64,000 nt of DNA from Eledone cirrhosa. Its lineage: Eukaryota. Shown here piece by piece: positions 27,394-28,670 of the stretch. The notes beneath the pieces are model-generated. The model worked only from the letters and a program-made list of their open reading frames with translations, was not told the origin of the DNA and searched no databases. Both the position numbers and the translations under genes were made by a program. The stretch covers positions 170,996,001 to 171,060,000 of the forward strand of contig OZ024740.1 of assembly GCA_964016885.1 (NCBI GenBank), written 5' to 3'. The stretch's first letter is position 1; each line of letters begins with the position of its first letter.

Positions 27394-28670
27394 AAGAATT
27401 AATATATCTACCGACATATGTATACAGATGCATACCTATGTTAGCAAATATATATGTTTTGTCTTAGTAACTTTGTGGTTCTATGCAAGGGGATGCAGAA
27501 CAATTATATGAAAGACGTAAATAAGAAAGTTATGAAAATTGACTTACTAAAATTTCACTCCAACTAATTAGTTTCTGTAAGGGGATTAATATGGTTACGG
27601 AGTGTACCCATAGAGAAGCCTTACGTCATCAGGGAGTCTATTCTCAGCTAAGCTTCCAGGCAATGCGGGGACACTGGGAACTTATATAAAAATAATTCAG
27701 TGGATGGAAAAAAGCGAGTGGGGCTAGATTCCAAGACATTGAAAAATTCACTGCTTACTTGGTCAAGTGGCAAATTCAAAAGAATCAATCACGTGACACT
27801 GAGGTTAATCAGCTAGGAGTGGGGGGTGCTATTAAGACAGAGCCTAGACACTACTATTAATCACAGTAGTAATTTCGGCAAATTTTGCTCAACAAATAAT
27901 TTGGAGATAATTATAAAGAATTAATATATCTACCGACATATGTATACAGATGCATACCTATGTTAGCAAATATATATGTTTTGTCTTAGTAACTTTGTGG
28001 TTCTATGCAAGGGGATGCAGAACAATTATATGAAAGACGTAAATAAGAAAGTTATGAAAATTGACTTACTTACTAAAATTTCACTCCAACTAATTAGTTT
28101 CTGTAAGGGGATAAATATGGTTACGGAGTGTACCCATAGAGAAGCCTTACGTCATCAGGGAGTCTATTCTCAGCTAAGCTTCCAGGCAATGCGGGGACAC
28201 TGGGAACTTATATAAAAATAATTCAGTGGGTGGAAAAAAGCGAGCGGGGCTAGATTCCAAGACATTGAAAAATTCACTGCCTACTTGGTCAAGTGGCAAA
28301 TTCAAAAGAATCAATCACGTGACACTGAGGTTAATCAGCTAGGAGTGGGGGTGCTATTAAGACAGCTGATTAACCTCAGTGTCACGTGATTGATTCTTTT
28401 GAATTTGCCACTTGACCAAGTAGGCAGGGAATTTTTCAATGTCTTGGAATCTAGCCCCGCTCGCTTTTTTCCATCCACTGAATTATTTTTATATAAGTTC
28501 CCAGTGTCCCCGCATTGCCTGGAAGCTTAGCTGAGAATAGACTCCCTGATGACGTAAGGCTTCTCTATGGGTACACTCCGTAACCATATTTATCCCCTTA
28601 CAGAAACTAATTAGTTAGAGTGAAATTTTAGTAAGTCAATTTTCATAACTTTCTTATTTACGTCTTTCAT
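27394..28670 (-). mobile_element. Retrozyme-like element: ~522-bp tandem monomers plus an inverted arm, three HHRs, in (TA)n
   Basis: 27394-27915 is repeated from 27916 to about 28365, then inverted at 28365-28670. HHRs at 27557-27637 (-), 28083-28163 (-) and 28541-28621 (+). Confidence 0.85.
27557..27637 (-). ncRNA. Type I HHR
   Basis: Minus strand: actcc CTGATGA c gtaagg...ccttac a GAAA ctaattag TT ggagt. Confidence 0.75.

Follow-up and report, generated by a model that had tools for sequence, protein, structure and literature searches.

Layout of the locus

The window analysed here, the whole stretch of 64,000 nucleotides of Eledone cirrhosa DNA, comes from a 3.0-Gb genome that is rich in microsatellites. 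Beside a (TA)n tract, it carries one full repeat unit of 522 bp, a partial unit of 448 bp and an inverted arm of 310 bp, with the following features:

27224..27393, no strand: (TA)n tract at the 3' end of the element, the likely insertion target
27394..27915, minus strand: full unit, 522 bp, whose 3' end is fixed site A (27394)
27394..27504, minus strand: terminal 111 bp of the full unit, at fixed site A
27557..27637, minus strand: hammerhead motif 1, type I, predicted cut between 27562 and 27561
27562..28087, minus strand: predicted cut-to-cut RNA monomer, 526 nt, bounded by the two predicted cuts
27916..28363, minus strand: second unit, 5'-truncated, unit positions 76-522, with a 4-nt gain at 28064-28067
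28083..28163, minus strand: hammerhead motif 2, predicted cut between 28088 and 28087
28364..28673, plus strand: inverted arm, 310 bp, unit positions 102-411, whose outer end is fixed site B (28673)
28541..28621, plus strand: hammerhead motif 3, in the inverted arm, with a G>A at 28617 that breaks the first stem I pair
28674..28685, no strand: short TA run at the outer end of the inverted arm

The two minus-strand units lie head to tail and differ by 4 substitutions, the 4-nt gain and one 1-nt loss. Together they measure 1.86 units, in agreement with an initial annotation of this DNA, which had put the array at about 1.85 near-identical monomers. The monomer length of ~522 bp given there is exact for the full unit but not for the spacing between hammerheads, which is 526 because the partial unit carries the gain and the loss. 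The inverted arm, previously estimated at ~300 bp with a third hammerhead, differs by 5 substitutions and lies on the 5' side of the main element in the sense of the latter. The element had also been placed entirely inside (TA)n; this is correct on the left, where the tract comprises 86 units (27224-27394), but not on the right, where the run has only 8 (28670-28685). No stop-to-stop frame lying wholly within the element is longer than 82 aa, which bears out the earlier statement that it holds no meaningful ORF. We conclude that the locus is a real, young insertion of a new retrozyme family, with copies about 1% apart. Its tandem-plus-inverted layout, (TA)n site and two fixed ends are family-wide signatures of Penelope-like insertion, an interpretation missed by the initial annotation.

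Other repeats lie close by. Another inverted pair (26326-26774; 80% alike) carries a different hammerhead-like motif at 26614(+), and similar sequence was present in 4 of the 197 fetched loci. The same number of these loci contain a small element with terminal inverted repeats of ~100 bp (26810-27180; 89% alike). Six further hammerhead-like motifs of other families are scattered over the window, at 7044(-), 10320(+), 49592(+), 50219(-), 51116(+) and 63525(-), and the genome appears to carry many hammerhead-like families. At 8240-10098(-) the window also holds, in two frames, what we take to be Penelope-like reverse transcriptase (RT) and GIY-YIG coding fragments.

A closed, protein-free unit in a multicopy family

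A count of genomic copies, as suggested in the initial annotation, gave 3,462 matches to the exact hammerhead pattern and 0 to a reversed control, so the matches are not due to chance. Among the best DNA matches, the 40 candidates scored, out of 2,438, contain copies at 93-98% identity. Short-loop variants of the hammerhead yielded 37 matches, and the 20 that were fetched are family copies at TA tracts. A looser motif search returned 158 matches versus 415 for its control, and its count is thus uninformative.

Insertions were mapped from three pooled samplings (best DNA matches, hammerhead patterns and a 32-nt pattern at site B) after removal of duplicates and of pieces below 83% identity; the pooled sample is weighted to contig C1 and partly selected for full units. 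Of 103 unit starts, 97 run on into the end of a unit, 2 lead out of the unit and 4 abut another unit piece. The unit is therefore closed and does not represent a truncated autonomous element. Closed units are also found in older subfamilies at 70-85% identity, and a search of the unit against Penelope-like element (PLE) proteins gave no match (best E 0.13). More than one unit is contained in 68 of 141 arms, a share inflated by the sampling, and more than two in 8 of 141, with lengths of up to 1,485 nt. Units of one insertion diverge by 2.8% whether they lie in the same or in opposite arms, with medians of 5.2-5.4% to other loci; both arms thus come from one template lineage.

The locus holds two consecutive head-to-tail units, each with a complete type I hammerhead, and belongs to a dispersed, multicopy family that codes for no protein and is not the stump of an autonomous element. 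The unit lacks the RT and GIY-YIG ORF between pLTRs that characterises autonomous EN+ PLEs. The ~525-bp family is an animal non-LTR retrozyme, and the identity first proposed from its tandem, protein-free, hammerhead-bearing units stands.

A variant type I hammerhead motif

The hammerhead core is canonical (CUGANGA, GAAA and UH, with three stems), and stem I is the open one, as in type I. All three motifs of the locus could be located with the anatomy initially described, namely one hammerhead per unit with a 5-bp stem I, a 6-bp stem II and a palindromic stem III. That description of the stems holds, but it had overlooked the G>A at 28617 and three further features: A9 is followed by an extra C, G12 is preceded by an extra A, the two bases flanking the stem II closing pair G10.1-C11.1, and the stem II loop of 35 nt contains a second hairpin. 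Among copies not selected by the hammerhead pattern, the extra C is found in 133 of 138 and the extra A in 153 of 154. The closing pair does not lie directly between A9 and G12, and the motif is a variant hammerhead. No hammerhead match came out of the Rfam search, whether at the gathering score or at E<=10, and the motif was therefore recognised from the letters themselves rather than from a library match; miRNA-family matches at E<=10 were rejected as hairpin matches below the gathering score. A short hammerhead with the same extra C and A was seen in a second protein-free family (L199, 2556-3819), which has a 438-bp unit in tandem and inverted form; this variant is common to several older families.

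In 35 variants hand-picked from 81 distinct ones, 94.8% of the cells are paired and 7 pairs show two-sided change. The covariation score of this hand-picked set was reached by 0 of 500 shuffles, a comparison that related sequences can win by relatedness alone. Two-sided changes are confined to stem II, which covaries across subfamilies, and to the inner hairpin; being nearly invariant, stems I and III receive no support from covariation. Core positions vary by 0.4-1.6%, compared with 3.5% for the unit overall.

According to the folding models, adopting the active hammerhead would cost 2.5 kcal/mol locally, and the 12-nt palindrome could form a duplex of -10.8 kcal/mol. In predicted folds of circular and tandem RNA, stems I and III have a probability below 0.01 and the dimer helix one of 0.01-0.15. 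The monomer folds better than all 100 shuffles (z -5.95, 0/100). Folded as a circle, as the initial annotation had advised, it is branched and 57% paired, with stems I and III outside the predicted ensemble; it is neither rod-like nor equipped with ribozymes in both polarities. The cut-to-cut RNA is predicted to be exactly 526 nt (28087 to 27562), matching the unit-length product of ~526 nt anticipated there.

A TATA-like motif lies ~50 nt upstream of the hammerhead core (27682-27689(-) in the window, and equivalents). Some older families have such a motif at a similar distance from the core, and it might act as an internal promoter.

Two fixed ends at TA repeats

The 3' ends of the insertions fall at two sites, each with a TATAATT motif: site A, which is the unit end, and site B, 111 bp upstream. 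Of the back-to-back insertions, 66 are simple: 56 of these pair an A end with a B end, 1 has two A ends, none has two B ends and 9 have one odd end; hence one A is combined with one B in 56 of the 57 with both ends fixed. Three further back-to-back insertions are complex. One-direction insertions end at A in 26 cases, at B in 16 and elsewhere in 3, and 134 of 140 fixed ends adjoin TA repeats. The window insertion is a standard case of the A+B type, with a site-A copy of 1.86 units and a site-B copy of 310 nt. The family thus shows the PLE-type layout, a tandem plus a truncated copy in inverse orientation, with a one-sided tail and a microsatellite target, and the one-of-each end rule is the Penelope 'tail' signature.

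In several older retrozyme copies (L065, L070, L077, L090, L091, L092), as well as in copies of PLE family A (L033, L035, L045, L050), a (CT)n run separates the element end from the TA tract, perhaps the result of slippage at initiation.

Relation to Penelope-like elements

PLE insertions are marked by partial tandems, an inverted 5'-truncated copy, a tail at one end and a bias towards (TA)n (PMC8557442, PMC3846280). The accessible text of PMC11167929 links the tail to two internal sites at which the RT starts and which bound it; it also describes that both strands are cut and that a dimer is predicted. Mobilisation of retrozymes by PLEs has already been proposed (PMC7229834; 10.64898/2026.07.22.740005).

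The genome contains at least three abundant autonomous families with RT and GIY-YIG, here A, B and C. Open frames reach about 800 aa in family B and over 1,000 aa in family C. All three carry what we presume to be RT motifs; Pfam matched GIY-YIG in B and C and found no such match in the family A fragments tested. Read by eye, each family has two alternative 3' ends at TA tracts. The terminal repeats of 20, 14 and 10 copies of A, B and C, respectively, share no sequence with the unit, and a 22-nt match of the unit to family B was rejected as low-complexity. Family B (L185-L191) further has a 3' region of more than 1 kb after the ORF, mostly TG/TA microsatellite, as part of the element.

At 20 fetched loci of related hammerheads, no PLE ORF lay directly upstream; neither these loci nor the three families revealed an autonomous partner with a pLTR homologous to the unit. 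Direct joints of the unit to PLE coding DNA occur at three loci, L012, L155 and L007 (families A and C), and fit template switching and nested insertion alike. L155 (2134-4335; also L163, 634-2835) is a chimera in which a family C RT-endonuclease fragment is preceded by the unit, with almost exactly one unit turn, from position 260 to 264; it is a single case. The three joints speak for PLE mobilisation; on the other side, they span two families and may be nested insertions, and the terminal repeats of A, B and C are unrelated to the unit. Taken together, the retrozyme was likely copied into (TA)n tracts by a Penelope-like RT and endonuclease acting in trans.

Cleavage, template and alternative readings

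The locus is probably one insertion of a 525-bp repeat that is high-copy and protein-free, bears a predicted type I hammerhead and was copied in trans by PLE machinery into (TA)n. The observed closed unit, copy number, hammerhead anatomy and covariation, fixed ends, TA flanks and same-lineage arms can be combined into the following scheme. A PLE enzyme would nick both strands of the tract, and cDNA synthesis would start on the RNA at the two fixed TATAATT sites, with a different site used for each strand. The two cDNAs would vary in length, frequently exceeding one unit, and these 5'-truncated copies would be joined back to back. With less assurance, tandem transcripts may cut themselves, perhaps paired as dimers by the palindromic stem III, and the ~525-nt monomers might then be circularised by a host ligase. 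Whether the template was a ~525-nt circle or an uncut tandem RNA is about evenly balanced. Most templates were uncut or circular, since 116 of 141 arms cross the cut site; within-insertion identity does not separate a circle from a linear template. The two arm lengths of an insertion are uncorrelated (rho 0.04).

Release of the monomer by read-through transcription, as initially envisaged, is doubtful. A transcript crossing the inverted arm is predicted to pair the arm with a unit, the modelled stem II probability of the nearer hammerhead falling to 0.18, and release would therefore need a start inside the partial unit.

The 5' ends of the arms bear on cleavage. In the 19 nt after the predicted cut (354-372), a window picked after inspection of the data, the 141 arms have 23 5' ends versus 6.7 expected (p 7e-7), and the excess is present in all three samplings; in the 19 nt before it (335-353) there are 5 versus 6.2. 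In 5 of 49 insertions, the ends of both arms fall within 354-372 (Fisher p 0.019). For a 4-nt indel in this zone, the passes of one insertion disagree in 16 of 46 insertions, with a single insertion being all-short. This pile-up hints at RT running off a cut 5' end; it also fits RT pausing, at a stem I predicted to be extended, or the joining of ends at a local palindrome. At the exact position of the predicted cut there is no excess (2 versus 1.0 expected). An enrichment of exact-cut ends noted by eye was rejected, since three of them trace to L157, a deletion variant that was excluded, and a stricter count was not significant. In that variant (1806-2530), all three passes lack unit positions 279-353 and are joined exactly at the predicted cut site; as all share the deletion, the template itself had lost the hammerhead core.

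Three other readings of the locus account poorly for these data. That the duplication or inversion is an assembly artefact is extremely improbable: the three copies of the window each have their own substitutions and indels, and the unit joint and the A and B ends recur at dozens of other loci. What speaks for an artefact is that, among contigs of three read runs, no contig spans the whole locus and none is listed across the inversion joint. Summed contig depth in these runs (one sample, kind not on record) is mostly 10^4-10^5 over the unit and 5-12 over the right flank. We likewise find it very improbable that what lies here is an autonomous PLE truncated from its 5' side down to the pLTR, rather than a separate non-autonomous element. 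PLE stumps do share its layout, and at L012 RT coding DNA lies immediately 5' of the unit; yet the PLE family of L012 has a pLTR and hammerhead of its own in 20 fetched copies, no unit start leads into an endonuclease ORF while nearly all wrap into a unit end, and the older subfamilies are closed as well, which largely refutes this reading. Very improbable, too, is an RNA that replicates RNA-to-RNA as a viroid-like circle and is copied into DNA only occasionally. Its fold, far better than that of shuffles, and the existence of many subfamilies would suit such an RNA, but the circle is predicted to be branched, only one polarity of the unit carries a hammerhead, and the motif had 0 matches in viral contigs and 0 in metagenome contigs. 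The description 'viroid-like' in the initial annotation is thus unsupported, nothing pointing to RNA-to-RNA replication.

A more serious contender retains PLE mobilisation and holds the hammerhead to be dead or nearly so, the templates being uncut linear tandem transcripts and no circle being formed. We regard this as quite possible, though short of even. It would explain why so many arms cross the cut site, why the active fold is not predicted and why 5' ends are not enriched at the exact cut; the pile-up could then reflect RT pausing at the predicted extended stem I, where slippage would give the 4-nt indel. Weak cleavage has been described for PLE hammerheads (PMC4209133); of 9 predicted Xenopus dimers, 8 failed to cleave in vitro (10.64898/2026.07.22.740005); and for the only PLE assayed in vitro, uncut RNA was the main substrate and the accessible text of PMC11167929 reports no reads ending at the cut. 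Against a dead hammerhead, its core is conserved above the rest of the unit and stem II is maintained by compensatory change; moreover, the pile-up stops at the cut site, a few insertions (5 of 49) have both arms ending in it, and arms of up to 1,485 nt would require long tandem templates to be renewed.

A bolder version of PLE mobilisation has a PLE enzyme with two active sites priming both target strands at the two fixed sites of one hammerhead-made 525-nt circle and rolling for <=3 turns; a minority of templates would be cut linear monomers, their 5' ends giving rise to the pile-up that follows the cut. We consider it rather unlikely in this full form. If true, the family would be a fossil record of rolling-circle target-primed reverse transcription and would show directly, from genomic sequence, that PLEs use animal retrozyme circles as templates, and a hammerhead with C and A flanking the stem II closing pair would be active in the germ line.

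Comparison with known systems

The element class, circular animal retrozymes, mollusc examples and the proposed mechanism are already published, which caps the surprise of the present family. A literature search in which subscription journals are poorly covered returned no paper on a cephalopod retrozyme; the giant squid genome paper lists 235 hammerhead loci (PMC6962438). To this the family adds a two-site rule that is strictly kept and comes with a long tail, a hammerhead variant, and a fossil signal that weakly hints at cleavage.

In the accessible text of PMC7229834 and 10.64898/2026.07.22.740005, metazoan non-LTR retrozymes are, like this family, protein-free, low-GC tandems with one type I hammerhead per unit, a short palindromic stem III and thousands of copies, with about 5,000 hammerheads in mussel. 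Linear and circular RNAs have been shown for them, whereas those of this family are predicted from genomic DNA. Its 525 nt exceed the 170-400 nt given in PMC7229834 and fall within the 51-972 bp of 10.64898/2026.07.22.740005. For inverted arms with fixed A and B ends, we found no counterpart in the accessible text of PMC7229834, where the word 'inverted' occurs 0 times; it occurs once in that of 10.64898/2026.07.22.740005. The axolotl retrozyme HHR_Amex2 has a U.U mismatch at the base of stem II (PMC7229834). With hammerhead viroids and satellite RNAs, the family would share the processing of multimers to unit length by hammerheads; unlike them, it is genome-encoded, has its ribozyme in one polarity, folds into a branched form and shows no sign of RNA-to-RNA replication.

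As far as the sources describe them, PLE-type hammerheads (PMC4209133) resemble the present motif in an extra nucleotide between 9 and 10.1, a conserved G10.1-C11.1 pair, a long stem II, a short stem I and a palindromic stem III, and dimer action and a circular template have been proposed for them. They differ from it in that the retrozyme motif has a second extra nucleotide, the A that separates 11.1 from G12, and a stem II loop of 35 nt whose inner hairpin covaries. Insertions of EN+ PLEs (PMC8557442, PMC3846280, PMC11167929) likewise combine a partial tandem, an inverted 5'-truncated copy, a tail at one end, a (TA)n target and a hammerhead near the 3' end. Unlike these elements, the retrozyme has no RT or GIY-YIG ORF, and its tail measures 111 bp instead of 30-40 bp. 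Moreover, both of its end sites carry a TATAATT able to pair with the target, whereas the start sites of the anole PLE are described as not homologous to the cut DNA (PMC11167929).

The link between retrozymes and PLEs has so far rested on shared hammerheads, co-occurrence and pLTR trees, to which the anatomy of insertions is now added: a retrozyme free of protein-coding sequence keeps the one-tail rule of PLEs in 56/57 cases. Since its thousands of copies share one genome with several autonomous PLE families whose open frames are long, the family offers a practical system for asking how PLEs build tandem and inverted insertions and whether their template is a circle.
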